Shown piece by piece: positions 3,663-22,425 of a stretch of 24,000 bases of DNA. Under the pieces are notes generated by a model. It was not told the origin of the DNA. It was given only the letters and a program-made list of their open reading frames with translations, and searched no databases. The stretch is from contig JAUNQW010000004.1 of assembly GCA_030535975.1 (NCBI GenBank), positions 34,590 through 58,589 on the forward strand, in the 5' to 3' direction. The position numbers and the translations under genes were made by a program. This DNA comes from Atopococcus tabaci (lineage in GTDB: Bacteria > Bacillota > Bacilli > Lactobacillales > Carnobacteriaceae_A). Position 1 is the first letter of the stretch. Every line of letters begins with the position of its first letter.

Positions 3663-6077
3663 CTAGCGAATCTGTGCATTTAACTCATTTTTTAAAGACT
3701 TAAGCACACGCTCAAAATCTTCTTGTACTTCTTCTTCTAATAAAGTTGCGTTAGGATTTTGATAGAAAAGGGAATAAGCCAATGATTTTTTCTTATCATC
3801 TATCCCCTCTCCTTCATAGTAGTCAAATAAATTCACTGACTGCAGCCAAGGGCCGGCTACTTTTTCAATCACTTCAACTATCTCTGAATGAGAGATTCTT
3901 TTATTCACTAGAACAGCTGCATCTCTGGTAATCCCCGGGTACTTAGGAATGTCTTCGACTACTCGGGAAGCTTTTTCTGCATCATGAATTAACTGCAGAT
4001 CAAATTCAAAGACATAGACATCTTCTAAATCTAAAGAATTTGCTAATTTAGGATGAATTTGTCCTATGAAGCCGAACTCATGACCGTGTAAATGCATCCC
4101 AGCTGTCCGACCCGGATGCATGCCTTTTTTCACTGTTAAGGGGCGGAATTCAACTTCTTCAGCCAGATTATATGACTCAAGTAACCCTTCCAGAATCCCT
4201 TTCAGAGTAAAGAAGTCCATCTCTACTACTTCATTGGTCCAGTCTTCGATATAATTTCCCGTCGCCAGAGCAGATACATGCTCCAACTCATCCAGAAGAG
4301 AATCTCCTGGTGTTCCGTGATAGATACGTCCTGTCTCATATAAGAAGATACTGTCAGTAGAACGGGCTCGGTTATACTTTGCGCTGTCTAACAGACCGGG
4401 AAGAATAGATTTCCGTAAAGTTTCATGTTCTTCGCTTAAAGGCATCGCTAAGTTCGTGTCATCACTCTCTGCGATAGAAAATTGATTTGCTTTTTCTTTA
4501 GTCGTTAAGGAATAAGTAATGGCTTGATTAAAGCCGGAACCTTCCATGTAGCGATTGGTTTGGCGAATCATTTTCTGCAGGACGCTTAATTTCCCGGGAA
4601 TAGAGGCTCCTACAGGTAAAGTATTGGGTAAATTATTGTAGCCATAAATACGAGCGACTTCTTCAGCCACATCAGCTTTAATCTTAATATCCCAGCGGCG
4701 CGGAGGTATGATAACCGTGAAGCTGTCACCCTCTCCATCTTTATAGTCAAACTGCAGACGATCAAAGATATCAAAGATAATAATCTTTGTCAGATCCACC
4801 CCGATCACATTATTTAAATAGGATACTGTTAAATTGATTTCAGTATTTTCTGCTGTGACATGGGCAACTTGGCTCATCCCGGATACAACTTTCCCGTCTC
4901 CTAACTGGGATAAGAGCTGGGCAGCATGATTCAAAGCATCAGTTACAACAGCTAGGTTAATCCCTTTTTCGAAGCGGGAACTAGCTTCACTGCGTAAGTT
5001 CAGTTTACCTGCAGTTCTTCTAATCTGCAGAGGATTAAAAACAGCAGCCTCTAAAGCAACATGTTGGGTTGAATGAGAAATATGTGTATTCTCGCCTCCC
5101 ATGACCCCACCCAGAGCAATGGGCTTTTCACCATCCGTAATGACAATATTTTCTGGATCTAATTGTCTTTCTTTGCCGTCCAAAGTAATCAGTCTTTCGC
5201 CTTCTTCTGCTCGTCGGACAACTATTTGATCAGTTCTAATCAAGTCCTTATCAAAAGCATGCAGCGGCTGTCCGTATTCCATCATAATATAGTTGGTAAT
5301 ATCAACTAAATTATCGATCGGACGCATCCCGACAGCCATCAATTTACGCTGCAGCCACATGGGACTTTCTTGAACCTGTAAGTCTTCTATGATCCGCATG
5401 CTGTAAATAGGAGCATCTTCGGCATTATCTACACCGACAGTCAGTATCTCTTCGATGTGACGCTCTTTATTTTCGGTCAGTTCAATTTTTTCAAATTCAG
5501 GAATTTGACTTAAAATCGCCCCTACCTCATGAGCAACACCACGCATACTCAATGCATCTGACCGGTTAGGCGTGAGATCAAAGTCAAAGATGGTATCATC
5601 TAAGCCCAGCACAGGTTTGGCATCTTCTCCCACCATAATGTCATCTGGTAAAACGTAAATTCCTTCAACATATTGTTTAGGAACTACTTTTTCAGGGAAG
5701 CCGAGTTCCTGCAGAGAACAAATCATTCCATTCGACGGATAACCCTGCATTTCACGCTCGCCGATTTCCATTCCTCCAGGCAGACGCGCTCCAGGCATGG
5801 CTACAATAACCTTTTGCCCCTGAGCAACATTGGGAGCACCACAAACAATTTCCTGCAGCTCATCGCGGCCTACATTCACTTTTGCAGCGTGGAGATGGGT
5901 ATCTGGAATAGGTGTACATTCTATAATTTCTCCAACTAGCAGACGAGAAATATCTTCACCTGGTTGATAGACATGTTCGACTTCAATTCCGGTCAAGGAC
6001 AGCTGGTCACCTAATTCTATAGGATCGACATCACTTAAATCTAAATACTCTTTTAACCAATTGAATGATACTAACAT
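3663..6077 (-). CDS. pheT: Phenylalanine--tRNA ligase beta subunit
   Basis: 804 aa. It begins MLVSFNWLKEYLDL, with tRNA-binding, B3/4, B5 and FDX-ACB regions recognisable. It lies immediately downstream of pheS. Confidence 0.97.
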   Translation of the reverse strand: MLVSFNWLKEYLDLSDVDPIELGDQLSLTGIEVEHVYQPGEDISRLLVGEIIECTPIPDTHLHAAKVNVGRDELQEIVCGAPNVAQGQKVIVAMPGARLPGGMEIGEREMQGYPSNGMICSLQELGFPEKVVPKQYVEGIYVLPDDIMVGEDAKPVLGLDDTIFDFDLTPNRSDALSMRGVAHEVGAILSQIPEFEKIELTENKERHIEEILTVGVDNAEDAPIYSMRIIEDLQVQESPMWLQRKLMAVGMRPIDNLVDITNYIMMEYGQPLHAFDKDLIRTDQIVVRRAEEGERLITLDGKERQLDPENIVITDGEKPIALGGVMGGENTHISHSTQHVALEAAVFNPLQIRRTAGKLNLRSEASSRFEKGINLAVVTDALNHAAQLLSQLGDGKVVSGMSQVAHVTAENTEINLTVSYLNNVIGVDLTKIIIFDIFDRLQFDYKDGEGDSFTVIIPPRRWDIKIKADVAEEVARIYGYNNLPNTLPVGASIPGKLSVLQKMIRQTNRYMEGSGFNQAITYSLTTKEKANQFSIAESDDTNLAMPLSEEHETLRKSILPGLLDSAKYNRARSTDSIFLYETGRIYHGTPGDSLLDELEHVSALATGNYIEDWTNEVVEMDFFTLKGILEGLLESYNLAEEVEFRPLTVKKGMHPGRTAGMHLHGHEFGFIGQIHPKLANSLDLEDVYVFEFDLQLIHDAEKASRVVEDIPKYPGITRDAAVLVNKRISHSEIVEVIEKVAGPWLQSVNLFDYYEGEGIDDKKKSLAYSLFYQNPNATLLEEEVQEDFERVLKSLKNELNAQIR

Positions 6078-6080
6078 TTT

Positions 6081-7127
6081 TTACCCCCTGGCCTTGAATT
6101 GTGATAAGAAGCGCTGGTCATTTTGATAAAAGTTTCGAATGTCATTGATTCCATATTTCAGCATGGCCACACGTTCTATACCCATTCCAAACGCAAATCC
6201 ACTATATTGTTCTGAATCTATGCCGGACATTTCCAACACATCTGGATGAACGACACCTGCACCTAAAATTTCAATCCATCCGGATTGCTTACAAATCCGA
6301 CAGCCGCCACCGCCACAGTTAAAGCAAGATACATCCACCTCCACGGAAGGTTCAGTGAATGGAAAGTAGGATGGACGAAGACGAATTTCTCGATCTTCAC
6401 CGAATAATTCTTTAGCAAATAAATTTAATGTTCCTTTTAAATCTGCCAGGGAAATATGATGGTCCACCACGAGTCCTTCAATCTGCTGGAATTGATGGGA
6501 ATGTGTCGCATCATCACTATCGCGTCGGTAGACTTTACCGGGACTGATCATTTTGAGCGGTCCTTCATTAAAATCATGAACATCCATCACACGCGCCTGG
6601 ACAGGTGATGTATGTGTACGCATCAATAGATTATGACCAATGTAAAACGTGTCCTGCATATCGCGGGCTGGATGGTCTTCAGGTAAATTCATCCGCTTAA
6701 AGTTGTAATCATCTTGTTCAACCTCAGACCCGTCGACAACCATATAACCCATTCCGAGAAAAAGTTCTTCAATCTCTTCACGAACCTGAGTGAGTATATG
6801 ACTCGACCCTTTAGGTAACTTTCGGCCTTGCAAGGTGACATCCAAGGTTTCTTCTTTCAGCCGAATATTTAAGAGATCAGCTTCAAACTGTGCCTGCTTT
6901 TCTTCCAAGCTCAAAGTGATCGCGTTTCTTACCTCGTTGCTCAGCTTACCTATCAGTGGTTTTTCTTCATTGGACAGCTGCGACATACCTTTCATGGCAG
7001 TGGTGATCTGTCCCTTACGCCCAAAGTAATCTACTCGTATAGCTTCCAATTCATCTAAATCACTTGCCTGCTCGATAACCGCTAAAGCAGCATCTCGAAT
7101 TTGTCCTAATTCTTGTTCCATCCCCAT
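6081..7127 (-). CDS. pheS: Phenylalanine--tRNA ligase alpha subunit
   Basis: 348 aa. Class II aaRS motifs are present ([39 protein letters not shown]). AAGGAG lies 8 nt upstream of the ATG. Confidence 0.97.
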
Positions 7128-7374
7128 ATTCTATTCTCCTTAAATTTTAAATCAAAAAAACTCGCCCCTGCAAGGGACGAGTTTCCGCGGTTCCACCCTA
7201 ATTTAATTAAAAATTAATTACACTTAAGCATAACGGTGCCGACCGGTTGATGTAACAACTCCAGAATGAATTCATTTAACTTGTGACGCAAAATCTCCCA
7301 GCATTTGATTTTACTCTCTTAGTCATAGTCTTAAACTACTACTTTCCTTCAACGTTTTTAATTATTCGTTTGAT
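7128..7374 (-). promoter_or_regulatory. T-box leader (Phe specifier UUC) controlling pheST
   Basis: On the minus strand the elements appear in canonical order. They are GA/K-turn plus AGUA (GAAGGAAAGUAGUA), the AG bulge UAAGAGAGU, the distal loop GCUGGGAGA, and the specifier loop GAA-UUC-A (UUC at 7268-7270). The F-box CCGUUA follows, then the T-box AAAUUAGGGUGGAACCGCG (7183-7201). The terminator is CUCGUCCC-uugca-GGGGCGAG plus U7 (7154-7183). Confidence 0.92.
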
Positions 7375-12807: not shown

Positions 12808-13443
12808 TTAAATAGTCTGCGCTTCGTAGCCTTTATTTTCTAAAACTTGTAAAACTTCCTGGCTGTCTTCGTTATCCGTTTGAATAACGAGTGTAGAAGT
12901 TGTTCCATCCCGACTGGAGATATAAAGATGGCTGATTCCTACACCTAAACCGGATAAAATACCAGACATTTCATGCAGAACACCTACTTGGTCTGCTACT
13001 TTAACTTCAAGTCGTGCACCGGGTTGACGGTAACCTGTAAGTTCAATTAAAGCAGCAAAGATATCTTTATCCGTAATAATTCCAATGACCTTGTCCTGCT
13101 CATCTACAACGATTAAGACTGATAGACCATAATCATGCATTTGTGCAGCGGCAGCCTCTATCACAATATCTTGACTGATAGTCTGGGCTTCTTTAGTCAT
13201 GAGTTGACCGGCAGTTTGTTTATCCAGAAGATAGTTCATTTCATAGATAGATAAACTTGAGGCGCTCGATGGAGAATTATTAGCAATAATAGCCTCTGTA
13301 ATTAAGCCTTGATAGACATTATTGACATCTACAACAGGGACCCTGTGGAAATCATTGCTTTCCATAATAGAAACAACTTCCGTTAAACGGACATCCGGCT
13401 CTACAGTGACAACGTTTTTTGTCATATAGTCTTTTACTCTCAT
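12808..13443 (-). CDS. CBS-CBS-ACT domain protein (AcuB-like), last gene of the liv operon
   Basis: 211 aa. It has two CBS repeats (MTKNVVTVEPD...HRVPVVD; MTKEAQTISQD...LIVVDEQDKVIGIITDKDI) and a C-terminal ACT-like fold (ARLEVKVADQVGVLHEMSGILSGLGVGISHL). The ATG lies 3 nt after the livF stop, and the SD GGAGG is inside the last livF codons. Confidence 0.8.
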   Translation of the reverse strand: MRVKDYMTKNVVTVEPDVRLTEVVSIMESNDFHRVPVVDVNNVYQGLITEAIIANNSPSSASSLSIYEMNYLLDKQTAGQLMTKEAQTISQDIVIEAAAAQMHDYGLSVLIVVDEQDKVIGIITDKDIFAALIELTGYRQPGARLEVKVADQVGVLHEMSGILSGLGVGISHLYISSRDGTTSTLVIQTDNEDSQEVLQVLENKGYEAQTI

Positions 13444-13446
13444 TAT

Positions 13447-14151
13447 TTATCCTCCTAAATATGCTTTCTGGACCTCATCACTCGCAAGAAGTTCTTTTCC
13501 TGTACCCGCTGCTACAATTTTACCTGTTTCAAAAACATAGCCGCGATCAGCAATTTCAAGAGCAACATTTGCATTTTGTTCAACTAAAAGAACAGTAGTA
13601 CCCCTTTTGTTAACCTCTTCTATAATATTGAAAATTTCCTGAATAAATAAAGGAGCCAGTCCCATAGAGGGTTCATCTAAAAGAATTAAATCAGGGCTGG
13701 ACAGTAAAGAGCGGCCCATAGCTAGCATTTGTTGTTCTCCCCCGGATAGAGTGGCTGCGTCCTGGTTCAAACGTTCTTTCAATACAGGGAAGCTGCGAAA
13801 AATCCGATCTAAATCTTCTTCAATTGCTTTGCTGTCTTTTCTTAGAAATGCTCCCATATCTAAATTTTCTTTGACAGACATCCCGCCGAAAACATGACGT
13901 CCTTCAGGAACATGCGATATACCTGCTTTAACAATCGTTCGTGCATCAGCTTTTGTAATATTGCGTCCTTTAAAGGTAATACTGCCATTGGAAGAGCGAA
14001 GTAAGCCGGAAATAGTTTTGAGAATCGTTGTTTTTCCTGCACCATTTGCCCCGATCAGGGTAACAATCTCACCTTCATTGACCTCAAAGGATACACGTTT
14101 GATGGCTTCAATTACGCCGTAACGCACACTCACATCTTTAATTTCTAACAT
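13447..14151 (-). CDS. livF: BCAA ABC transporter ATP-binding protein LivF
   Basis: 234 aa. Walker A GANGAGKTT, signature LSGGEQQML, C-terminal EVQKAYLGG typical of LivF. The start is directly adjacent to the livG stop codon. Confidence 0.9.
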   Translation of the reverse strand: MLEIKDVSVRYGVIEAIKRVSFEVNEGEIVTLIGANGAGKTTILKTISGLLRSSNGSITFKGRNITKADARTIVKAGISHVPEGRHVFGGMSVKENLDMGAFLRKDSKAIEEDLDRIFRSFPVLKERLNQDAATLSGGEQQMLAMGRSLLSSPDLILLDEPSMGLAPLFIQEIFNIIEEVNKRGTTVLLVEQNANVALEIADRGYVFETGKIVAAGTGKELLASDEVQKAYLGG

Positions 14152-14925
14152 TTAAACACCACCTAAGTATGCACGAATAACTTCATCGTTAGTTTGAATT
14201 TCTGAAGGAATGCCCTCTGCAATCAACCGCCCGTATTCTAAAACATAAATTCTTTCACAAACATTCATAACCACATTCATATCGTGTTCAATTAATACGA
14301 TCGTGAGATTAAATTCTTTGTGGATACGTTGAATTAACTGGGTCAGTTCTGCACTTTCAAAAGGGTTCATTCCTGCTGCCGGCTCATCCAAAAATAATAG
14401 TTTAGGATTAGTAGCCATCGCACGAACAATTTCTAATTTTCTTTGATCCCCATAAGGAAGATTCTTAGCTTTTTCATCATACACTTCAGTTAAATCAAAA
14501 ATATCCAACAGATGGAAAGCTTGTTCAGTAATCTCTTCTTCAGAACGATAAAAGGCCGGAGTACGAAAGAAACTCGCAAACAGCCCTGCTTGCTTTTCTG
14601 TATGCATACCTATTTTGACATTATCTATAACTGATAAATCACCGAATAAACGGATGTTTTGAAAGGTTCGGGCGATTCCTTTTTCAGATATATTATATGT
14701 CTTTTCTCCGTCAATTTTTTCTTTATTCCCATCGACCTTGAAAAAAACTTCGCCTTCACTGGGCTGATAGACACCTGTTAACAAGTTAAAGAAGGTTGTT
14801 TTTCCTGCCCCGTTAGGTCCGATCAGGCCAATAAGTTCACCTTCTTGGATCTCCATACTTACATTTGAAACTGCGGTTAGACCGCCAAAATTCTTCGTTA
14901 AGTCATTTACTTTTAATAAAGTCAT
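14152..14925 (-). CDS. livG: BCAA ABC transporter ATP-binding protein LivG
   Basis: 257 aa. LTKNFGGLTAVSNVS, GPNGAGKTTFFNLLTG, LPYGDQRKLEIVRA, C-terminal EVIRAYLG. Confidence 0.9.
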   Translation of the reverse strand: MTLLKVNDLTKNFGGLTAVSNVSMEIQEGELIGLIGPNGAGKTTFFNLLTGVYQPSEGEVFFKVDGNKEKIDGEKTYNISEKGIARTFQNIRLFGDLSVIDNVKIGMHTEKQAGLFASFFRTPAFYRSEEEITEQAFHLLDIFDLTEVYDEKAKNLPYGDQRKLEIVRAMATNPKLLFLDEPAAGMNPFESAELTQLIQRIHKEFNLTIVLIEHDMNVVMNVCERIYVLEYGRLIAEGIPSEIQTNDEVIRAYLGGV

Positions 14926-14939
14926 TCAAACACCCCTTC

Positions 14940-15923
14940 CTAATCTTTTTTCTTAAGGCTTTTTATAAATCCAGGACGATCTTCTTCTCTGCCCAGCAAA
15001 GTAGATAAGCTGAATTCACGTCCTCCAAGTAAACCAGATGGCTTGAATATCATGATGCCAATCAAAGCAATGGCGTAAATAATCATGCGCAGTGCGCCAA
15101 ATTGCTGCAGGTAAAGATTGAGAATACCCAAAATAAAACCAGCCACAATAGAACCTGTGATTGATCCTATCCCACCAAAAACCACTGTAATTAGAACATC
15201 AATGGAGCGGTCAAAACCAAACTGAGAAGGGTTGATGACCCCTAAGTTGGTAGCATGAACCGATCCTGCAACAGCAGCAGCCATTGCTCCAATAACAAAG
15301 GCAGCTACTTTCATTTTTGTTGTATTGATACCTAGAGATTCAGTTGCGATTTCATCTTCCCGTACGGCAATAGTTGCTCGTCCACGGGAGCTGCGAATAT
15401 AATTCAGCACAAAGATGACAACAATAACTGTAAAGACAGTGGCTGTCCGCCAATTCATTAGATAGATAGGTATACCACTTAAGCCTGCTGCTCCATTTGT
15501 TAATCCTTCCATATTTAAGATCGCGACACGGATAATTTCAGCAACTCCCAGTGTGGCAATGGCTAAATAATCTCCTTTTAATCTTAACGTGGGATATCCG
15601 ACGATAAAAGCAACAATCCCTGCAATCACCGCTCCTGCCAGAACACTTAGAATAAAACTAATAAAGTTGGGACTTTGCCGGGTCATAATACCTGTAGCAT
15701 ATGCTCCAATGGCCATGAATCCTGCATGCCCTAAAGCTAACTGACCAGAGAAACCGACAATCAAGTTCAGGCCGACAGCTAACATAATATTAATCATAAT
15801 AGTAACTAGAGTCTGCTGCATGACCGGCGAAGTAAAGCCGGTAGTGACACCAATCTCAAGTAAAACAAATGTTAATATAATAAGAATGAGCCAAGTGATA
15901 TTCGTACGATTAAATAATTTCAT
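14940..15923 (-). CDS. livM: BCAA ABC transporter permease LivM
   Basis: 327 aa polytopic membrane protein. GQLALGHAGFMAIGAYA is the LivM hallmark. Confidence 0.9.
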   Translation of the reverse strand: MKLFNRTNITWLILIILTFVLLEIGVTTGFTSPVMQQTLVTIMINIMLAVGLNLIVGFSGQLALGHAGFMAIGAYATGIMTRQSPNFISFILSVLAGAVIAGIVAFIVGYPTLRLKGDYLAIATLGVAEIIRVAILNMEGLTNGAAGLSGIPIYLMNWRTATVFTVIVVIFVLNYIRSSRGRATIAVREDEIATESLGINTTKMKVAAFVIGAMAAAVAGSVHATNLGVINPSQFGFDRSIDVLITVVFGGIGSITGSIVAGFILGILNLYLQQFGALRMIIYAIALIGIMIFKPSGLLGGREFSLSTLLGREEDRPGFIKSLKKKD

Positions 15924-15932
15924 ATGATCACC

Positions 15933-16829
15933 CTACACTTTCTCATTTTCATTTTTACCAAGCAGTCCGGCTGGTTTTACTAGTAAAATAATAATTAAAA
16001 TTAAATAGACAACCGCATCACGAATCATCGAATTACCGTAAGCAGTAATCATAACTTCAACCATACCGATCAAGTAGCCCCCGAGAACCGCTCCTGGAAT
16101 CAAACCGATTCCACCAATTACGGCTGCGACGAAAGCTTTTGTACCATATCCAGCACCCATCAATGGGTTCATTGAGTTATAATACATTCCTACCATGACT
16201 CCGCCTGCACCGGCCAGCATAGATCCAAGAAGGAAAGTAAAAGCAATAACAGCATTCGCGTTAATTCCCATTAACTGGGCTGCTTCCTGGTCAATACTTA
16301 CAGCTCGCATGGCTTTCCCCATTTTAGTCTTTTGAACAACAAACTGTAATAAAATCATTAAAATAATCGTCGTTGACAGTAAAATAATCTGCATCATAGA
16401 AATTGAAATGCCGCCTAAACTGACCGATTGGTTAACAAAACCTGGTGTCTGTTCGAAAGCTGAAAGAAAAGATTTCGTTTCCGGACCGACGATAGCTGTC
16501 ATTCCATTCTGCAGTAAATAAGACACTCCGATAGCTGTAATTAACACAGACAGTCGTGGAGCATTCCTCAAAGGTTTATAGGCTATCTGGTCAATCACTA
16601 CTCCTATAACTCCTGTCACAATCATCGTCAATATAATCGTAGGGAATAAGCCTAAATTCAAATTCTGAATAATATAATAGCCTACAAATGATCCCACCAT
16701 GAAAATATCTCCGTGAGCAAAGTTTAATAATTTAATAATACCGTAAACCATGGTATAACCCAGGGCAATAAGTGCATACACACTGCCTAAGGTCAGACCA
16801 TTGATTACTTGCTGGATAAAAACAGCCAC
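15933..16829 (-). CDS. livH: BCAA ABC transporter permease LivH
   Basis: 298 aa. QQVINGLTLGSVYALIALGYTMVYGIIKLLNFAHGD is the LivH N-terminal signature. GTG start. Confidence 0.9.
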   Translation of the reverse strand: MAVFIQQVINGLTLGSVYALIALGYTMVYGIIKLLNFAHGDIFMVGSFVGYYIIQNLNLGLFPTIILTMIVTGVIGVVIDQIAYKPLRNAPRLSVLITAIGVSYLLQNGMTAIVGPETKSFLSAFEQTPGFVNQSVSLGGISISMMQIILLSTTIILMILLQFVVQKTKMGKAMRAVSIDQEAAQLMGINANAVIAFTFLLGSMLAGAGGVMVGMYYNSMNPLMGAGYGTKAFVAAVIGGIGLIPGAVLGGYLIGMVEVMITAYGNSMIRDAVVYLILIIILLVKPAGLLGKNENEKV

Positions 16830-16876
16830 AATGTCACATCCTTTTCTTTTTCTTATAAAAGACAGAAAGTAAGAAC

Positions 16877-18052
16877 TTATTCAGCTCCTACCTCGTGCGC
16901 CTCTACATCCTCACCATTCTGTACTTCAATGATTGTAACAGTTTTAACTGGATTGTGCATTTCATCAAATGAGAATGTTCCAGTTACTCCGTCAAAATCT
17001 GTCGTTTCAGCTAACGCTTCATTGACAGCTTGTGGATCTGCGCTCCCCGCACGTTCGATCGCTTCTTTCGCTACATATACGCCGTCATAAGCCATTGCAG
17101 CAAACATATCTGCTTCTTTGTCAAATTTTTCTTTGTAGTTTGACATGAATGCTTCTACTTGTTCATTTGCAGATAAGGCAGAGAACTGAGTCGTATAATA
17201 AACATCCGTTAAGCCGGAAGCACCTGCCAATTCATAGAGAGAATCATTTCCAAATCCATCTGGACCTAAAATAGGCTGTGTAATTCCCATCTCGCGGGCT
17301 TGTTTAATGATCGGGCCGGCCTCTTGGTAGTAACCCGGGATAAAGAGGATATCAAAATCTTGTCCTCTTAAGTTAGTAAGAACAGCAGAAAAATCTGTTT
17401 CTCCCGCTGTAAAGTTTTCACTTGCTACTACTTCACCAGGAAAAGCTTCAGTAAATGTCGCAACCAAACCTACTGCATAGTCAGACGAGTTGTCTCCTAA
17501 TACCGCCGCTGTTTGGGCATTTAAGTCCGTCGCAGCAAAATCTGCTAAAGCATTTCCTTGATAAGAGTCCGGATATGCAATTCTCCACCCGTAAGGAATC
17601 ACACTGCCGTCTCCACTTTCAGTAAATGAGTCTAAAGAAGCGGATGGTGACAGTAAAGGCACTTCATGTTGATTAGCTACTTGTAAAGAAGCCACCGCTG
17701 CACCCGAAACATCAGGTCCTAAGATAACGCTTACTTCATCTTCAGTCGCAAGACGCGTCGTTACAGTAGCTGCTTCGGAATCTTCTGAACCATAATCATA
17801 TTCCACAACTTCCACCTGTTTGCCATTGATTCCGCCTGCTTCATTAATTTCTTCCGCGGCTAATTGAACGGCCTGTGCTTGAGGAAGTCCATAAGCAGAA
17901 ACCTCTCCTGATTGTGCGAAAACGGAGCCCAGCTTAATAGTATCAGCTTCATCATAATTGATGTCCGCAGTTCCCCCTCCTGAACACCCCGCTGCCAGAA
18001 GTGCTCCTCCTGCTAAAAGGCCTAATAAACCTTGTCTCAATCTATTCTTCAT
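16877..18052 (-). CDS. livJ: BCAA ABC transporter substrate-binding lipoprotein (LivJ paralog 1)
   Basis: 391 aa. Lipobox LLAAGC, type-I periplasmic binding fold (Peripla_BP_6-like). First gene of the liv operon. SD GGGGAG lies 7 nt from the ATG. Confidence 0.88.
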   Translation of the reverse strand: MKNRLRQGLLGLLAGGALLAAGCSGGGTADINYDEADTIKLGSVFAQSGEVSAYGLPQAQAVQLAAEEINEAGGINGKQVEVVEYDYGSEDSEAATVTTRLATEDEVSVILGPDVSGAAVASLQVANQHEVPLLSPSASLDSFTESGDGSVIPYGWRIAYPDSYQGNALADFAATDLNAQTAAVLGDNSSDYAVGLVATFTEAFPGEVVASENFTAGETDFSAVLTNLRGQDFDILFIPGYYQEAGPIIKQAREMGITQPILGPDGFGNDSLYELAGASGLTDVYYTTQFSALSANEQVEAFMSNYKEKFDKEADMFAAMAYDGVYVAKEAIERAGSADPQAVNEALAETTDFDGVTGTFSFDEMHNPVKTVTIIEVQNGEDVEAHEVGAE

Positions 18053-18086
18053 CTAAAATCTCCCCTTTTTTAATAATAAGTTATCG

Positions 18087-18122
18087 AAAAAAAGACAAGC
18101 CCGGAAATATTGGGCTTGTCTT
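18087..18122 (-). terminator. Intrinsic terminator (attenuator) inside the livJ-1 leader
   Basis: Minus strand AAGACAAGCCC-aauauuucc-GGGCUUGUCUU followed by a U7 run, 35 nt upstream of the livJ-1 ATG. Confidence 0.85.
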
Positions 18123-18188
18123 ATTATGTGAGCCCAACATTTCTAGTTTAAGTAGAAATAGGACCCTTTCTAAAGAGAAAGAATCCTG

Positions 18189-18278
18189 CTACATAATAAT
18201 AGTGACATTATTCACTTGTGGAAAAAGCGAATGGGTACTATAAAATGGATCCATTTGTTGATGTATTTTAGGGCACAT
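18189..18278 (-). CDS. Candidate leader peptide, 29 aa: MCPKIHQQMDPFYSTHSLFPQVNNVTIIM
   Basis: AAGGAGG lies 7 nt upstream of the ATG at 18278, and the stop TAG is at 18189-18191. The last 8 codons are V-N-N-V-T-I-I-M. The first attenuator hairpin starts 2 nt after the stop. Too short for the ORF track. Confidence 0.45.
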   Translation of the reverse strand: MCPKIHQQMDPFYSTHSLFPQVNNVTIIM

Positions 18279-18319
18279 TTCGCTTCCTCCTTTTTATTCG
18301 AAACCAATATGATATGAAT

Positions 18320-18348
18320 ATTATATGAATAATAAAACAAAAAAGCAA
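18320..18348 (-). promoter_or_regulatory. Sigma-A-type promoter of the livJ-1 leader
   Basis: Minus strand TTGCTT (18343-18348) - 17 nt - TATAAT (18320-18325). Confidence 0.65.
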
Positions 18349-18417
18349 TGCCTTTTCCTTCTTATAGAAAAGATTTAAATAGTAATGGCTGTCCATCGCT
18401 TTTATAAATATCAAAAA

Positions 18418-18485
18418 CCGTGTCATTTATTCTACTGTTCTAAATTGTACGTATAATCTAGATATATATTGAATAGTTGACACGG
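18418..18485 (-). repeat. Long inverted repeat / weak terminator after livJ-2
   Basis: CCGTGTCA (18418-18425) and TGACACGG (18478-18485) enclose 52 nt with a second imperfect arm pair (ACTATTC/GAACAGT). A U5 run follows on the minus strand. Confidence 0.4.
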
Positions 18486-18498
18486 ATTTTATTCTCCA

Positions 18499-19668
18499 CT
18501 AATTTGCAGGATCAACTTCATGAATATCTGATGGTGATCCTTCTTGAATTTCAATAATAGATACTGATTTTACAGGGTTATGGTTTTCATCAAATGAGAA
18601 TGTTCCTGTAACACCTTCAAAGTTTTCAGTCTTTGCAATTTCTTCATTAATAGCAACTGGATCCGTAGAACCCGCACGTTCAACTGCTTCTTTAACAATT
18701 TGAACAGAGTCATAAGCCAGGCCGGTAAACATATCTGGTTCAACATCGAATTGCTCACGGTATGAAGAAACAAATTCTTGAGTTGTTGGATCTTCACTTT
18801 CAACAGCAAAGTGTGAGGTATAGAAAACATTCGTCATATTAGCTTCTCCAGCTAAATCATAGATGATTTCATTCCCAAATCCATCCGGGCCTAAGATAGG
18901 TTGTGTAATTCCCATTTCACGAGCCTGTTTGATGATCGGGCCTGCCTGCTCATAATATCCCGGAACATATAGAACATCGAATTCCATATCTTCAATATTA
19001 GTTAATGAAGCAGAAAAGTCTGTCTGGTCAGCTGTAAAGTTTTGTACCGACACAATTTCACCTTGGAAGGTATCTTCGAATGTTTGAGTTAAACCTTGAG
19101 CATAATCACTGGAGTTATCTGCAAAGATAACTGCGTTTTCAGCTTGTAAATTTTCATTAGCAAACTGAGCTAATGCTTGTCCTTGATAAGAGTTGGTGAA
19201 ACATGCTCTGTATGCAAAGTCATACACACTGCCGTCTTCTCTTTCTAAAACACTGTCATCTGTTGCTGTTGGTGAAATGATAGGCACTTGGTTTTGATCT
19301 GCAATAGGAATAGCAGCTTGGAAAGTACCTGTTAATGCAGGCCCTACAATAGCTGATACCTCGTCACCCGTGGTTAAGGTTGTCGTTGATTGAGCAGACT
19401 GCGTTTCATCGGATTGAATATCATATTCAAAAATTTCAAGTTCTTTACCATCAATTCCGCCTTCGTCATTGATTTCTTCAACTGCCATCTTAACGGCATT
19501 GTTCATAGAAGTACCATACCCGGCAGCAGAACCTGTCAGCTCAAACATGGATCCTATTTTAACCGTGTCATCGGAATCGGTCTCTGCTTCTTGACCCCCA
19601 TTAGAACATGCTGCCAGCAACAAACTTGCGGCTACCAGGCCACCTGCAATATATTTTTTTATCTTCAT
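18499..19668 (-). CDS. livJ: BCAA ABC transporter substrate-binding lipoprotein (LivJ paralog 2, orphan)
   Basis: 389 aa. Lipobox LLLAAC. Clearly paralogous to 16877-18052, with an identical block AGPIIKQAREMGITQPILGPDGFGN. No permease or ATPase genes of its own. Confidence 0.88.
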   Translation of the reverse strand: MKIKKYIAGGLVAASLLLAACSNGGQEAETDSDDTVKIGSMFELTGSAAGYGTSMNNAVKMAVEEINDEGGIDGKELEIFEYDIQSDETQSAQSTTTLTTGDEVSAIVGPALTGTFQAAIPIADQNQVPIISPTATDDSVLEREDGSVYDFAYRACFTNSYQGQALAQFANENLQAENAVIFADNSSDYAQGLTQTFEDTFQGEIVSVQNFTADQTDFSASLTNIEDMEFDVLYVPGYYEQAGPIIKQAREMGITQPILGPDGFGNEIIYDLAGEANMTNVFYTSHFAVESEDPTTQEFVSSYREQFDVEPDMFTGLAYDSVQIVKEAVERAGSTDPVAINEEIAKTENFEGVTGTFSFDENHNPVKSVSIIEIQEGSPSDIHEVDPAN

Positions 19669-19696
19669 TTCTTTTCCCCCTTTTTTATCCTAAAGA

Positions 19697-19730
19697 AAAA
19701 TAAAAAGCGAGCCTTTAACCGGCTCGCTTT
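19697..19730 (-). terminator. Intrinsic terminator (attenuator) inside the livJ-2 leader
   Basis: Minus strand AAAGCGAGCC-gguuaaa-GGCUCGCUUU followed by UUAUUUUU, about 30 nt upstream of the livJ-2 ATG. Confidence 0.8.
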
Positions 19731-19797
19731 AATTAGTTAGAAGAGCCTCTTTTCCAATACGAAATGAGACCTCCACCAACATTCTGGTAAGGACTCT

Positions 19798-19869
19798 CTA
19801 CATAACTAATAATAAGAAATCTTCTTTTTGAACAGCAGATGACACGGTTAATTTTATTGTATTGTTCAT
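19798..19869 (-). CDS. Candidate leader peptide, 23 aa: MNNTIKLTVSSAVQKEDFLLLVM
   Basis: AAGGAG lies 8 nt upstream of the ATG at 19869, and the stop TAG is at 19798-19800. The last codons are UUA-UUA-UUA-GUU-AUG. The G of the stop codon is the first base of the first attenuator hairpin. Confidence 0.45.
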   Translation of the reverse strand: MNNTIKLTVSSAVQKEDFLLLVM

Positions 19870-19907
19870 ATCATCCACTCCTTTTCCATTTTCTCTAGAT
19901 GAAACTT

Positions 19908-19935
19908 ATTATATAAGCTTTTAGTTTTTTTGCAA
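19908..19935 (-). promoter_or_regulatory. Sigma-A-type promoter of the livJ-2 leader
   Basis: Minus strand TTGCAA (19930-19935) - 16 nt - TATAAT (19908-19913). It starts 1 nt after the stop of the upstream ABC ATPase gene. Confidence 0.65.
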
Positions 19936-19936
19936 G

Positions 19937-20611
19937 CTAAATAAATTCTGCAGAACTCAAAACGCGTGTGCTGTACTCCTCAGCGAAGTTGATATCATGT
20001 GTAACTACGATAATTCCTGTACCTTCTGCAGCAATGCTTTGAATCATCTCTCCCACAATACTTGCCGAGTCTTTATCTAAAGCAGACGTCGGCTCATCAA
20101 AGCATAATACTTTCGGATCCAGCATCATGCTTCGAGCGATAGCAACTCTCTGGGCCTGCCCTCCGGACAAGGTCTTTGGCATAGCATTAATTTTCTCACC
20201 TAAACCCATCTGCTCCAATAAAGCAACAGCTTTTTCACGAATCGCTTGTTTAGAAAGAATTTTTTGTGCTAAAGGTGCTTCCATCAGATTTTCTAAAGCG
20301 GACATATTAGGAAAGAGTTGATAATCCTGGAAAACCATACCAATCTCATTGTCGTAAGCCCAGCGTTCACTTCCACTTGTATAAGTGACCTGTCCATTTT
20401 CGTCTGTATCCACTAATTTAGCATCATTGATCATTACACAGCCCTGGTCAATTGGAATTAAAGAATTTAAGATTCGAATAAAAGTTGTTTTACCTGTCCC
20501 TGACTCACCAACAAGTGCAACAATTTCTCCTTCTTCCATTTTAAAACTAAAATTATCTAAAATGACTGCATCATCAAATTTTTTAGATAGATTCTTTACT
20601 ACTAAAGTCAT
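19937..20611 (-). CDS. Polar amino acid ABC transporter ATP-binding protein
   Basis: 224 aa. Walker A GESGTGKTT, signature LSGGQAQRVAIAR, Walker B LCFDEPTSALD. SD AGGAGG. Confidence 0.9.
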   Translation of the reverse strand: MTLVVKNLSKKFDDAVILDNFSFKMEEGEIVALVGESGTGKTTFIRILNSLIPIDQGCVMINDAKLVDTDENGQVTYTSGSERWAYDNEIGMVFQDYQLFPNMSALENLMEAPLAQKILSKQAIREKAVALLEQMGLGEKINAMPKTLSGGQAQRVAIARSMMLDPKVLCFDEPTSALDKDSASIVGEMIQSIAAEGTGIIVVTHDINFAEEYSTRVLSSAEFI

Positions 20612-20620
20612 GACGGCCTC

Positions 20621-21256
20621 CTAATATTCCACTCTCTGTTCAACTTTATTCAATGCAAAAGTTACGACTCCGGTCACCAGTAAATAAAGGACTCCTACCG
20701 CTAAGAATGGCACCAGCGTAGCGTAAGTATTTACTGCAATCTGACCTGCACGCAGCAGCTCCCCGATCCCTATAACATACACAAGTGAAGTGTCCTTAAC
20801 CAAGGAAATAACTTCATTTCCCACCGAGGGCATAACAACCCGGAAGACCTGGGGCAGAATAATTCTTCTGAACCCTCTAACTTTACCGATTTGCAAAACA
20901 TGGATGGCTTCAAACTGACCAGCTGGAATGGAATTAATACCTCCTCGGAAAATTTCAGCAAAATAAGCTGCATAATTTAGAATGTAAGCGAGCAGGGCTG
21001 CTGAAAAACGAGCCATGGAGATTCCCACAAAAGGGAGTCCAAAGAAAACAAACATAAGTTGAAGCATTAAGGGCGTTCCACGCATCACATATATATATAT
21101 TCCAATCAACCCTTGCAGCCATTTAGGTCCAAAGACACGCAGTACACCTAAAATCAAACCTAAAGGCAGACTCGCTAGGAGAACAATAGTAAATAAAGAT
21201 AGAGTTGTTTGTAGACCATTCATTAAAGATGGCCATATTTGTATGATTAAGTCCAT
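20621..21256 (-). CDS. Polar amino acid ABC transporter permease (HisM/GlnP family)
   Basis: 211 aa, 5 TM segments, with an EAA-like loop (ALLAYILNYAAYFAEIFRGGINSIPAGQFEA). Confidence 0.9.
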   Translation of the reverse strand: MDLIIQIWPSLMNGLQTTLSLFTIVLLASLPLGLILGVLRVFGPKWLQGLIGIYIYVMRGTPLMLQLMFVFFGLPFVGISMARFSAALLAYILNYAAYFAEIFRGGINSIPAGQFEAIHVLQIGKVRGFRRIILPQVFRVVMPSVGNEVISLVKDTSLVYVIGIGELLRAGQIAVNTYATLVPFLAVGVLYLLVTGVVTFALNKVEQRVEY

Positions 21257-21284: not shown

Positions 21285-22088
21285 TTATTCTTCAGAGAAC
21301 CACTTACTATAAATTTCATCATAAGTGCCATCTTCGATAATTTCTTGTAAAGAAGCGTCAAACTCTTCTTTGAAAGCTGTGTCTTCCTGGCGCATACCTA
21401 CAGCATAGACTTCTTCGCCAAAATTATCCTCCAAGACACGGTAAGCAAAGTCATCATTCAAGCTCATGTAATAACGCCCCATCACTTCATCCACAACAAT
21501 GGCTTCAGCACGGCCGCTGATCAAATCATTGAAAACATCGTTATTTGACGGGTACTGCACAACTTCTCCATCGGCGAATAAAGCTGGATAATCTCCCTCA
21601 TCATCATTGATTGCATCTACTGCACTTGATGATTGTTGAGCGGCAACAACTTTACCTTCTAAATCCTCTTTCGTCTGGATATCACTATCTTCAGCTGTTA
21701 CGATCATTTGACTATTTTCCATATAAGCTTCTGAAAACAGTACTTTTTCTTCACGCTCAGGTGTTACTGTGTATCCATTCCAAATTAAATCGATATTACC
21801 AGCATCTAACTCAGTTTCTTTTAGAGACCAGTCGATGGCTTGAAAATCCATTTCAATGCCTAATCTTTGACCCACTTCCTTAGCCAGATCAATATCAAAT
21901 CCAACCAGTTCACCATTATCATCTCTAAAACCCATCGGCGGGAAAGTATCATCCAATCCAACAATTATACTTTCATATGAAGCTGAGGAATCACCAGCTC
22001 CTTCCTCACTCGTTTCACCATTACCACAAGCAGCTAAAACTAAACTTACCGACAAAATCGACATGAAACTTACTAACCATTTTTTCAT
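21285..22088 (-). CDS. Polar amino acid ABC transporter substrate-binding lipoprotein (SBP family 3)
   Basis: 267 aa. Lipobox VLAAC. GLDDTFPPMGFRDDNGELVGFDIDLAKEV and DLIWNGYTVTPEREEKV are typical of the family. Confidence 0.88.
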   Translation of the reverse strand: MKKWLVSFMSILSVSLVLAACGNGETSEEGAGDSSASYESIIVGLDDTFPPMGFRDDNGELVGFDIDLAKEVGQRLGIEMDFQAIDWSLKETELDAGNIDLIWNGYTVTPEREEKVLFSEAYMENSQMIVTAEDSDIQTKEDLEGKVVAAQQSSSAVDAINDDEGDYPALFADGEVVQYPSNNDVFNDLISGRAEAIVVDEVMGRYYMSLNDDFAYRVLEDNFGEEVYAVGMRQEDTAFKEEFDASLQEIIEDGTYDEIYSKWFSEE

Positions 22089-22425
22089 TTATATTCCCCC
22101 TTATTAAATTTATCATTTGATTTACAAAAAAATAAAATCGTCCTTTAATGAGCTGGCCTTTTTCAGCTCATTAAAGGACGACTCTGCTAAGGAGCGTGTT
22201 CCCACCTTTTTTTACAGCTTTTTTACAAAAGCTGCCTCTGTGCGTCTTTTCAGACGCTAACCTGCTAACGGAAGGCTCCGGAAATGTTTACTTTTCAAAT
22301 GATTCAACATTCTGCTCCAAAGATGTGTTTCAAAGTCTGATTGTCATCATTTTCACCGGGCATGATGTCTCTAAAAGCAACACGACTTCTACTCTTTCTT
22401 TTCACTGCATTATAAAGATATTACA
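22089..22425 (-). promoter_or_regulatory. T-box leader (predicted His specifier CAC) controlling the polar amino acid ABC operon
   Basis: On the minus strand: GA/AGUA elements (GUGAAAAGAAAGAGUAGAAG), AG bulge UUAGAGA, and stem CAUCAU/AUGAUG capped by the distal loop GCCCGGUGAAA. The specifier loop is UUGAAA-CAC-A (CAC at 22325-22327). The antiterminator is AAAGG-[UGGGAAC]-ACGCUC...GAGuCGU-CCUUU (T-box core 22194-22210). The terminator has a perfect 18-bp stem (22138-22155 / 22164-22181) followed by a U run. Confidence 0.85.

Follow-up and report, generated by a model that had tools for sequence, protein, structure and literature searches.

We analysed a 24,000-nucleotide stretch of genome assembly GCA_030535975.1, catalogued as Atopococcus tabaci (contig JAUNQW010000004.1, positions 34,590 to 58,589 of the forward strand; hereafter the window), in which a leader transcript of ~225 nt precedes livJ2HMGF, an operon for the uptake of branched-chain amino acids (BCAAs). 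Sequence comparison and RNA folding suggest that this leader is a ribosome-mediated leader-peptide transcription attenuator, which would induce the operon in response to a shortage of charged tRNA-Ile and probably of charged tRNA-Val; we put the probability of this reading at roughly 85%. Attenuation by a leader peptide had been proposed in an initial annotation of the window, and comparison with related leaders supports that interpretation. The leaders appear to form a new RNA family that employs a classical mechanism. What would set the family apart is its targets, which are uptake and aminotransferase genes, its separate Leu, Ile and Val versions, and a pair of alternative helices (P1 and helix H) that apparently sense the position of the ribosome.

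Layout of the livJ2 leader

The leader is located on the minus strand in the intergenic region between livJ1 and livJ2, two tandem paralogous binding-protein genes (the coordinates of all features are collected in Table 1). Its open reading frame (ORF) of 29 codons follows an AAGGAGG ribosome-binding site (RBS), translates as MCPKIHQQMDPFYSTHSLFPQVNNVTIIM and was found just as the initial annotation had described it, including the 7-nt spacer to the ATG and the tail V-N-N-V-T-I-I-M. The regulatory codons, GUC ACU AUU AUU AUG (18206-18192), encode the end of that tail, V-T-I-I-M. The promoter had been described as strong; the positions given for TTGCTT-17-TATAAT are correct, while the adjective has to be qualified, as the -35 hexamer matches TTGACA at just three of six positions and a consensus scan consequently left the promoter unlisted. 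Orthologous leaders carry TTGACA-17-TATAAT at the equivalent position. The distance from promoter to RBS, given as about 35 nt, required correction, since the RBS starts 27 nt past the -10 hexamer.

Downstream of the ORF the RNA can adopt several helices that exclude one another. An intrinsic terminator with a GC-rich stem separates the leader ORF from livJ2. It can be read directly from the sequence, U-run included, is present in the minimum free energy (MFE) fold, and lay outside the pattern of our scan tool owing to its 9-nt loop. As had been proposed, it overlaps an antiterminator, so that the two are mutually exclusive. The antiterminator duplex (-19.5 kcal/mol) was recovered by RNAfold on the last 58 nt of the leader; its length of 13 bp, as claimed initially, holds for this genome and is specific to it, only the core GGGCU:AGCCC being general. 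Hairpin P1 (called A:A' in the initial annotation) and helix H, which competes with P1 and with the antiterminator, were likewise found where they had been placed. This chain of four structures stands as far as it goes, and two elements have to be added to it. The first is helix P0, whose 5' strand comprises the Ile codons, the Met codon, the stop codon and the C that follows, and which closes a three-way junction. P0 is overlapped by the ORF and blocks the antiterminator, and we take it to be the default 'off' state of the untranslated leader. The second is a hairpin that sequesters the RBS and the AUG, with a 3' arm inside the leader ORF. Over 261 nt the leader has an MFE of -77.9 kcal/mol, compared with -47.8 +/- 4.3 for shuffled sequences (z = -7.0), and none of 200 shuffles equalled the observed value.

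A second leader of the same design precedes livJ1. Here an AAAGGAG RBS is followed by a 23-codon ORF (19869-19798) that translates as MNNTIKLTVSSAVQKEDFLLLVM and contains UUA UUA UUA at 19815-19807; the 3' strand of P0 lies at ~19747-19733, and the terminator (19730-19696) consists of AAAGCGAGCC...GGCUCGCUUU followed by U's. Tails of its orthologues read ..EDVLLLVI and ..NDLLLLV before the stop. The window therefore holds one Ile-type and one Leu-type leader. In terms of the initial annotation, which spoke of an Ile/Val leader, the livJ2 leader is classed as Ile type, and the separate Leu-type leader before livJ1 is to be added.

Reading frame, codon class and covariation among related leaders

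We gathered 29 leaders from perhaps a dozen lineages of Carnobacteriaceae, many of them represented by metagenome-assembled genomes (MAGs) or metagenome contigs. The sources were two Atopococcus relatives, each contributing both leaders, contigs with LivJ2 homologues of 55-77% identity, and a scan of metagenomes with a pattern for the RNA core. Around two-thirds of the 37 loci returned by that scan were chance matches, mostly to one human-gut coding sequence, and were dropped on inspection. Judging from neighbouring proteins, the leader carriers include Atopostipes, Trichococcus and Marinilactibacillus in addition to Atopococcus; the nearest genomes are Atopococcus MAGs, with LivJ2 identities of 90% and 77%.

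An RBS, an ATG and an open frame are found in 29/29 leaders, and in all of them a run of BCAA codons lies one to three codons ahead of the stop, which itself falls 0-4 nt before P1. The short ORF is thus conserved along with the hairpins, consistent with the initial interpretation. In the 23 leaders in which stop codons were counted, the ORF frame contains none and the other two frames contain 59 each. Orthologues of the livJ2 leader keep frames of 29, 29 and 31 codons, with tails ..VTII[M/V] or ..VIVIIM before the stop. The N-termini of the peptides drift freely while the C-terminal run is kept, as illustrated by MCPKIHQQMD... versus MSCRNHQQLN... in the genome with 90% identity. Some of these short ORFs are annotated by gene callers in public assemblies; such calls are not evidence of translation.

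The codon runs fall into classes. Ahead of livJ genes we found Ile tails (..VTIIM, ..VIVIIM, ..KIVIIIV, ..NIIIIIK and ..VVIIIIT), Leu tails (..FLLLVM, ..DLLLLV, ..NLLLLVK and ..NLLLLLVK), one Val tail (..NNVVVVM) and mixed tails (..TLLLIIIP and ..KLLILIIT), while the tails ahead of ilvE are mixed (..DALVILEVI and ..SALLYIVSP). All targets are BCAA genes. When the LivJ proteins encoded downstream were placed in a neighbour-joining tree, those with Leu leaders (the LivJ1 clade) separated from those whose leaders are of the Ile or Val type (the LivJ2 clade). The repeats (UUA)n and (AUU)n are one and the same polymer (UUAUUAUUA), and in the 20 leaders with at least three repeats the ATG sets a frame that reads Leu in 8, Ile in 12 and Tyr in none. 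The match between LivJ clade and leader class, together with a choice of frame that gives Leu or Ile and never Tyr, favours translation of the ORF, because an untranslated RNA element would predict neither.

Some members of the family deserve separate mention. At least four livJ paralogues lie in tandem on one contig (L053, 864-5283); an Ile5 leader (..ENIIIIIK) precedes one of them, and another has a pure Val4 leader (..NNVVVVM), the sole Val-type leader among those collected. In three Trichococcus-like loci (L069, L073 and L084) the same RNA scaffold, with mixed tails, stands before ilvE, the gene for the branched-chain aminotransferase; in a Marinilactibacillus-like locus (L079) it stands before a gene for a 350-aa membrane protein, which ilvE follows. 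The tails of these ilvE-linked leaders include the two given above for that gene, and their P0 is short or arranged differently.

Past the stop codon and the short spacer, the elements follow one another in a fixed order in all livJ leaders. Element 1 (GGAUUC) comes first, then a variable top of the hairpin, element 2 (GAGUCC, which with element 1 forms P1), P2 (UAUUUSU...ASAAAU) and element 3 (GGGCUC). These are followed by a complement of the codon run, a linker and the terminator; the 5' arm of the terminator has AGCCC (element 4) at its end, and its 3' arm starts with GGGCU (element 5). The junction sequences GGAUUC, GAGUCCUAUUU and GGGCUC are strongly conserved. Conservation of elements 1, 2 and 3 in sequence is what would be expected if element 2 switches between 1 and 3 as its partner, and in one leader (L052) the three have changed jointly, to AGAUUC, GAGUCU and AGGCUC. 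The 3' strand of P0 varies along with the codon run. In the Val leader of L053, 5' CGUUAUG pairs with 3' CAUAACG; in the Ile leader of the same contig the strands are UUAUUAUUAUUAAG and CUUAAUAGUGAUAA, and in a Leu leader (L072) they are UUAGUUAAG and CUUAACUAA. With RNAduplex, the cognate P0 duplex was better than every partner from another amino-acid class in 19/23 leaders, with a mean z of -3.8 against shuffles, and P0 shows the strongest covariation of the leader helices. In the antiterminator, the 5-bp core GGGCU:AGCCC is invariant and the extensions are idiosyncratic, varying between species. The hairpin over the RBS and AUG is present in 22/23 leaders, its 5' arm running from the RBS through the AUG and its 3' arm lying in mid-ORF, with sequences that are unrelated yet complementary. 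UAG, rather than UAA or UGA, is the stop in 27/29 leader ORFs; this choice seems to be constrained by the RNA, because the AG of the stop and the next C pair with the GCU of GGGCUC in P0.

A MAFFT alignment (A1) misaligned P0 and several Leu leaders and was replaced by the RNAduplex tests and a realignment guided by a covariance model (A3). In A3, both-sided changes occur in 27/37 modelled pairs, a count somewhat inflated by the fitting of the alignment to the model structure; 79% of cells are paired, compared with at most 55% when partners are slid, and 0/500 shuffles reach the observed values. By helix, both-sided changes occur in 7/11 pairs of P1, where the base (GGAUUC/GAGUCC) is conserved in sequence, in 4/7 pairs of P2, and in 9/11 pairs of the terminator, 95% of whose cells are paired. 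The covariance model was built on the terminator, P1, P2 and the proximal part of P0, and its matches in the window number exactly two. One is the livJ2 leader (18087-18215, 112 bits, E = 5e-17), a sequence in the training alignment, and the other is the livJ1 leader (19699-19825, 42.9 bits, E = 1.5e-4), a sequence outside the training set. The model detects every leader of the Carnobacteriaceae type and has no match in 49 loci with distant LivJ homologues, nor in Atopococcus tabaci GCA_029267875.1. That assembly has a single livJHMG locus (L057, 2282-2500), which lacks a leader of this family, and its LivJ branches outside both leader-bearing clades.

These data bear on other ways of explaining the leader. 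A structured RNA might sense a ligand, a protein or a tRNA directly: it could be a riboswitch, bind a TRAP-like protein through its UUA repeats or represent a degenerate T-box, for instance, and the ORF would be an untranslated by-product. Such a sensor would fit the placement of the RBS and AUG within a conserved hairpin, the strong conservation of the three-way-junction sequences, the use of the codon run itself as one strand of a helix, and the protein with CBS and ACT domains encoded at the operon end. We regard it as very improbable in view of the ATG at RBS spacing and the frame statistics, of the fixed distance from stop to P1, and of the fact that Leu and Ile leaders are set apart by reading frame, which tracks the LivJ clade, and not by the repeat. 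Searches of Rfam 15 agree. No family reached the gathering score on either leader of the window, nor in 12 related loci, and even at E <= 10 (livJ2 leader) and E <= 1 (livJ1 leader) there was no match to T-box, leu/phe-leader, the Leu, His, Thr or Trp leaders, livK, ykkC/ppGpp or rli60, and hence none that would explain the structure, a point on which the initial annotation's interpretation also depended.

Another explanation retains translation and changes the signal, in that the attenuator would report general translation capacity or stress, such as any slowing of ribosomes or antibiotics, and not Ile or Val specifically. Leaders of the ermC type, which respond to ribosome slowing and antibiotics, are an established precedent, and the livJ2 leader itself has only two Ile codons in a tail shared with codons for Val, Thr, Asn and Met. 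A general signal is very improbable given that orthologues have homopolymeric runs, of 4-5 codons for Ile or Leu and of 4 for Val, that run class correlates with binding-protein clade, and that the targets are restricted to BCAA genes. Finally, the notion that the hairpins are a livJ1 terminator or insulator beside a constitutive promoter, with no regulation and with the ORF and the alternative pairings arising by coincidence, draws on the location between two same-strand genes and on the ease with which short ORFs and UUA/AAU complementarity arise in AT-rich sequence, but is hardly tenable when livJ1 has its own terminator farther upstream of the leader, the same architecture recurs before livJ1 and, in other genera, before ilvE, and the fold z-score of -7, the covariation and the frame statistics all speak against coincidence.

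Predicted switching

Returning to attenuation by a translated leader peptide, we folded transcripts cut before the 3' arm of the terminator, with a ribosome mask extending from A-18 to A+11 around the A site; the energy models leave out the ribosome, RNA polymerase and co-transcriptional order save through these crude masks. Full-length masked folding was rejected as a readout of switching, since the terminator dominates everywhere, and was replaced by the cut transcripts and by barrier estimates. Averaged over the leaders, the pairing probability of the terminator 5' arm was 0.56 for ribosome-free RNA, rose to 0.77-0.79 when codons -5 to -2 were in the A site, and returned to 0.56 when the A site held the stop. 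Masked MFE folds follow a three-state switch in L002, L053, L064, L072 and the Leu leader of the window. With the ribosome absent, P0, P1 and P2 form the three-way junction and the terminator 5' arm is free. When the run occupies the A site, P1 and P2 coexist with the GGGCU:AGCCC antiterminator and the arm is paired. Once the A site has reached the last codon or the stop, P1 is melted, GAGUCC:GGGCUC (helix H) is stacked on P2 in the absence of the antiterminator, and the arm is again free. The initial annotation had expected the antiterminator with a stalled ribosome and helix H with a ribosome at the stop, which is what the masked folds of these leaders show. For the livJ2 leader itself, direct-path (findpath) barriers to the antiterminator are consistent with the same logic, at 4.3 kcal/mol from P1 and P2 (stalled) compared with 13.3 from the three-way junction (free) and 12.4 from H and P2 (at stop).

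We propose that a sigma-A-type promoter drives the leader and that a ribosome loads at AAGGAGG-7-AUG and translates the 29 codons ending in GUC ACU AUU AUU AUG UAG, translation being predicted from the conservation described above. If the RNA is untranslated, the codon run and stop would pair with the segment led by GGGCUC (P0), giving the three-way junction with P1 and P2; the 5' arm of the terminator would be free and the operon off. If a ribosome stalls at an Ile or Val codon, it would occupy the 5' strand of P0 and leave P1 intact, and the released GGGCU would pair with AGCCC of the terminator 5' arm, leading to read-through. Should the footprint of a ribosome at the stop extend as far as in our masks, it would cover GGAUUC, the 5' arm of P1, which begins 2 nt past the stop; the freed GGGUCC would then join GGGCUC to form helix H on P2, which would block the antiterminator and result in termination. 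The hairpin over the RBS and AUG probably restricts this decision to a ribosome loaded co-transcriptionally. A response in vivo to scarcity of charged tRNA-Ile would further presuppose that the kinetics of refolding, and the timing of the ribosome relative to RNA polymerase, are as modelled.

Several observations weigh against this mechanism, the inflated pair counts of A3 among them. In transcripts cut before the terminator 3' arm, the 13-bp antiterminator of the livJ2 leader wins at equilibrium in every ribosome state; because of this, switching in this leader depends on kinetic trapping, for which the backing consists of heuristic barrier estimates. About one third of the leaders change little in the equilibrium proxy, and in many orthologues the antiterminator is just 5-6 bp long. 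Besides Val and Thr, the livJ2 leader has just two Ile codons, compared with three to five in orthologues. In addition, the hairpin over the RBS and AUG would, at equilibrium, be predicted to inhibit the very translation that the model requires.

A wider scheme is possible, and we put it forward tentatively. One scaffold may have been re-programmed, via the codon run and its complement alone and in some cases by the frame of the UUA repeat only, to yield distinct sensors for Leu, Ile and Val as well as mixed ones, each wired to a different LivJ paralogue of a single LIV ATP-binding cassette (ABC) transporter or to ilvE. Codon class might then predict the ligand preference of LivJ, the three BCAAs might be measured independently at uptake, and the RBS/AUG hairpin might act as a one-shot gate. 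For annotation, the sequence of a leader could by itself predict the BCAA served by the LivJ paralogue downstream. A single scaffold with three specificities, and a complement that covaries with the codons, would also be a compact system for relating ribosome position to an RNA folding decision.

Known attenuators and neighbouring features

The proposed mechanism resembles that of the enterobacterial leaders trpL, leuL, ilvL/ivbL, hisL and thrL. Both have a short ORF with regulatory codons clustered near its end, a codon segment that pairs with the next segment (1:2, here P0), which can instead form an antiterminator with the 5' arm of the terminator, and termination of the untranslated leader (the logic of super-attenuation). 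Chains of alternative pairings with multiple segments are known from the his leader. In contrast to the enterobacterial leaders, the livJ2 leader has P1 and P2 inserted between segments 1 and 2, producing a three-way junction, and P1 appears to tell a ribosome on the run from one on the stop. It has no similarity to them in sequence or by covariance model, no Rfam leader family matching it. The family also controls binding-protein genes, the liv permease and ilvE, rather than a biosynthetic operon, and its host is a lactic acid bacterium.

Precedents are also found in Firmicutes, in which the leu leader of Lactococcus lactis (Rfam leu/phe-leader) is a BCAA attenuator. The Listeria monocytogenes RNA Rli60 is an ilv-leu attenuator whose start-codon and RBS mutants are super-attenuators (PMC5864092), the behaviour that our model predicts for the livJ2 leader; a leucine-rich attenuator peptide precedes ilvD in S. 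aureus (PMC5794164), and leader-peptide attenuators of Firmicute his genes have been documented or predicted (PMC2965389, PMC9413887). The Rli60, ilvD and leu systems share with the livJ leaders a ribosome-mediated response to BCAAs built from leader peptide, antiterminator and terminator. They differ in that they control ilv-leu biosynthesis with mixed BCAA codons and act together with CodY, whereas the livJ leaders control uptake or an aminotransferase, exist as separate Leu, Ile and Val versions, match nothing in Rfam and have no CodY box nearby. At no more than three mismatches the window contains 3 CodY-box matches, compared with 4.4 expected by chance, and none is near the leaders.

In Firmicutes, expression of amino-acid transporters is usually coupled to tRNA charging by the antitermination of T-box leaders (RF00230). 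The livJ2 leader differs from these in having no Stem I, specifier loop or T-box sequence, and it would sense charging via codon translation and not via tRNA binding. The window does contain two genuine T-box leaders, upstream of pheS/pheT and of a polar amino-acid ABC transporter, both detected by the Rfam scans that left the livJ leaders unmatched, suggesting that in this genome some genes are under T-box control while BCAA uptake is under that of leader peptides. An evolutionary switch from T-box to leader peptide among livJ genes could not be claimed, as an Rfam scan of 20 distant livJ loci from Clostridia and other groups was empty.

The liv genes of E. coli, which belong to the same transporter family as livJHMGF here, are regulated by the protein Lrp. 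The livJHMGF system here is otherwise comparable to livJ/livKHMGF of that species, which has two binding-protein paralogues, one Leu-specific and one broad for Leu, Ile and Val, and one shared permease; the 2018 review of BCAA transport and regulation that describes it mentions no leader peptide for transporters (PMC6123439). We likewise found no leader peptide for liv or other BCAA uptake genes, or in Carnobacteriaceae, in a full-text literature whose coverage was mostly without subscription journals. If correct, our model would extend Firmicute leader-peptide attenuation to amino-acid uptake genes and the leaders would be a new family of cis-regulatory RNAs in Carnobacteriaceae. As a mechanism this is textbook, which makes the advance incremental rather than conceptual.

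Table 1. Features of the window discussed in the text, with positions counted from its first nucleotide.
Feature	Position	Strand	Details
Promoter of livJ2HMGF leader	18320..18348	-	-35 TTGCTT 18348-18343, 17-nt spacer, -10 TATAAT 18325-18320; read directly
Leader ORF	18189..18292	-	RBS AAGGAGG 18292-18286, 7 nt, ATG 18278, 29 codons, TAG 18191-18189
RBS/AUG-sequestering hairpin	18220..18290	-	5' arm GGAGGAAGCGAA 18290-18279, 3' arm UUCGCUUUUUCC 18231-18220; in MFE fold
Helix P0 (anti-antiterminator)	18121..18199	-	UUAUUAUGUAGC 18199-18188 : GCU-C-ACAUAAUAA 18133-18121; in MFE fold
Hairpin P1	18161..18186	-	GGAUUCUUUCU-cuuu-AGAAAGGGUCC; starts 2 nt past stop codon; in MFE fold
Hairpin P2	18139..18159	-	AUUUCUA-cuuaaac-UAGAAAU
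Helix H	18130..18166	-	GGGUCC 18166-18161 : GGGCUC 18135-18130, stacked on P2; read directly
Antiterminator	18104..18143	-	GAAAUGUUGGGCU 18143-18131 : AGCCCAAUAUUUC 18116-18104; 13 bp; conserved core GGGCU:AGCCC
Intrinsic terminator	18087..18122	-	AAGACAAGCCC, 9-nt loop, GGGCUUGUCUU, U-run; 11-bp GC-rich stem; in MFE fold
Regulated genes	13447..18052	-	livJ2 16877-18052, livH 15933-16829, livM 14940-15923, livG 14152-14925, livF 13447-14151; ORFs and Pfam matches
Leu-type leader of livJ1	19696..19935	-	promoter TTGCAA/TATAAT 19935-19908; read directly
livJ1	18499-19668	-	ORFs and Pfam matches
livJ1 terminator	~18406-18489	-	CCGUGUCA, ~50-nt loop, UGACACGG, five U's; unusual long loop
T-box leader	7170-7361	-	upstream of pheS/pheT (6081-7127, 3663-6077); Rfam 113-115 bits (range of both T-boxes)
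T-box leader	22171-22414	-	upstream of polar amino-acid ABC transporter (21285-22088, 20621-21256, 19937-20611); Rfam 113-115 bits (range of both T-boxes)

Two neighbouring features complete the locus. A gene at 12808-13443 on the minus strand begins 3 nt past the livF stop, encodes a protein of 211 aa with a CBS pair and an ACT domain, and probably ends the liv operon; amino acids are common ligands of ACT domains. The livJ1 terminator weakly resembles Listeria rli51 when read on the plus strand, at 23.8 bits and below the gathering score of 48, and its outer stem is kept in one of the related loci (L001).

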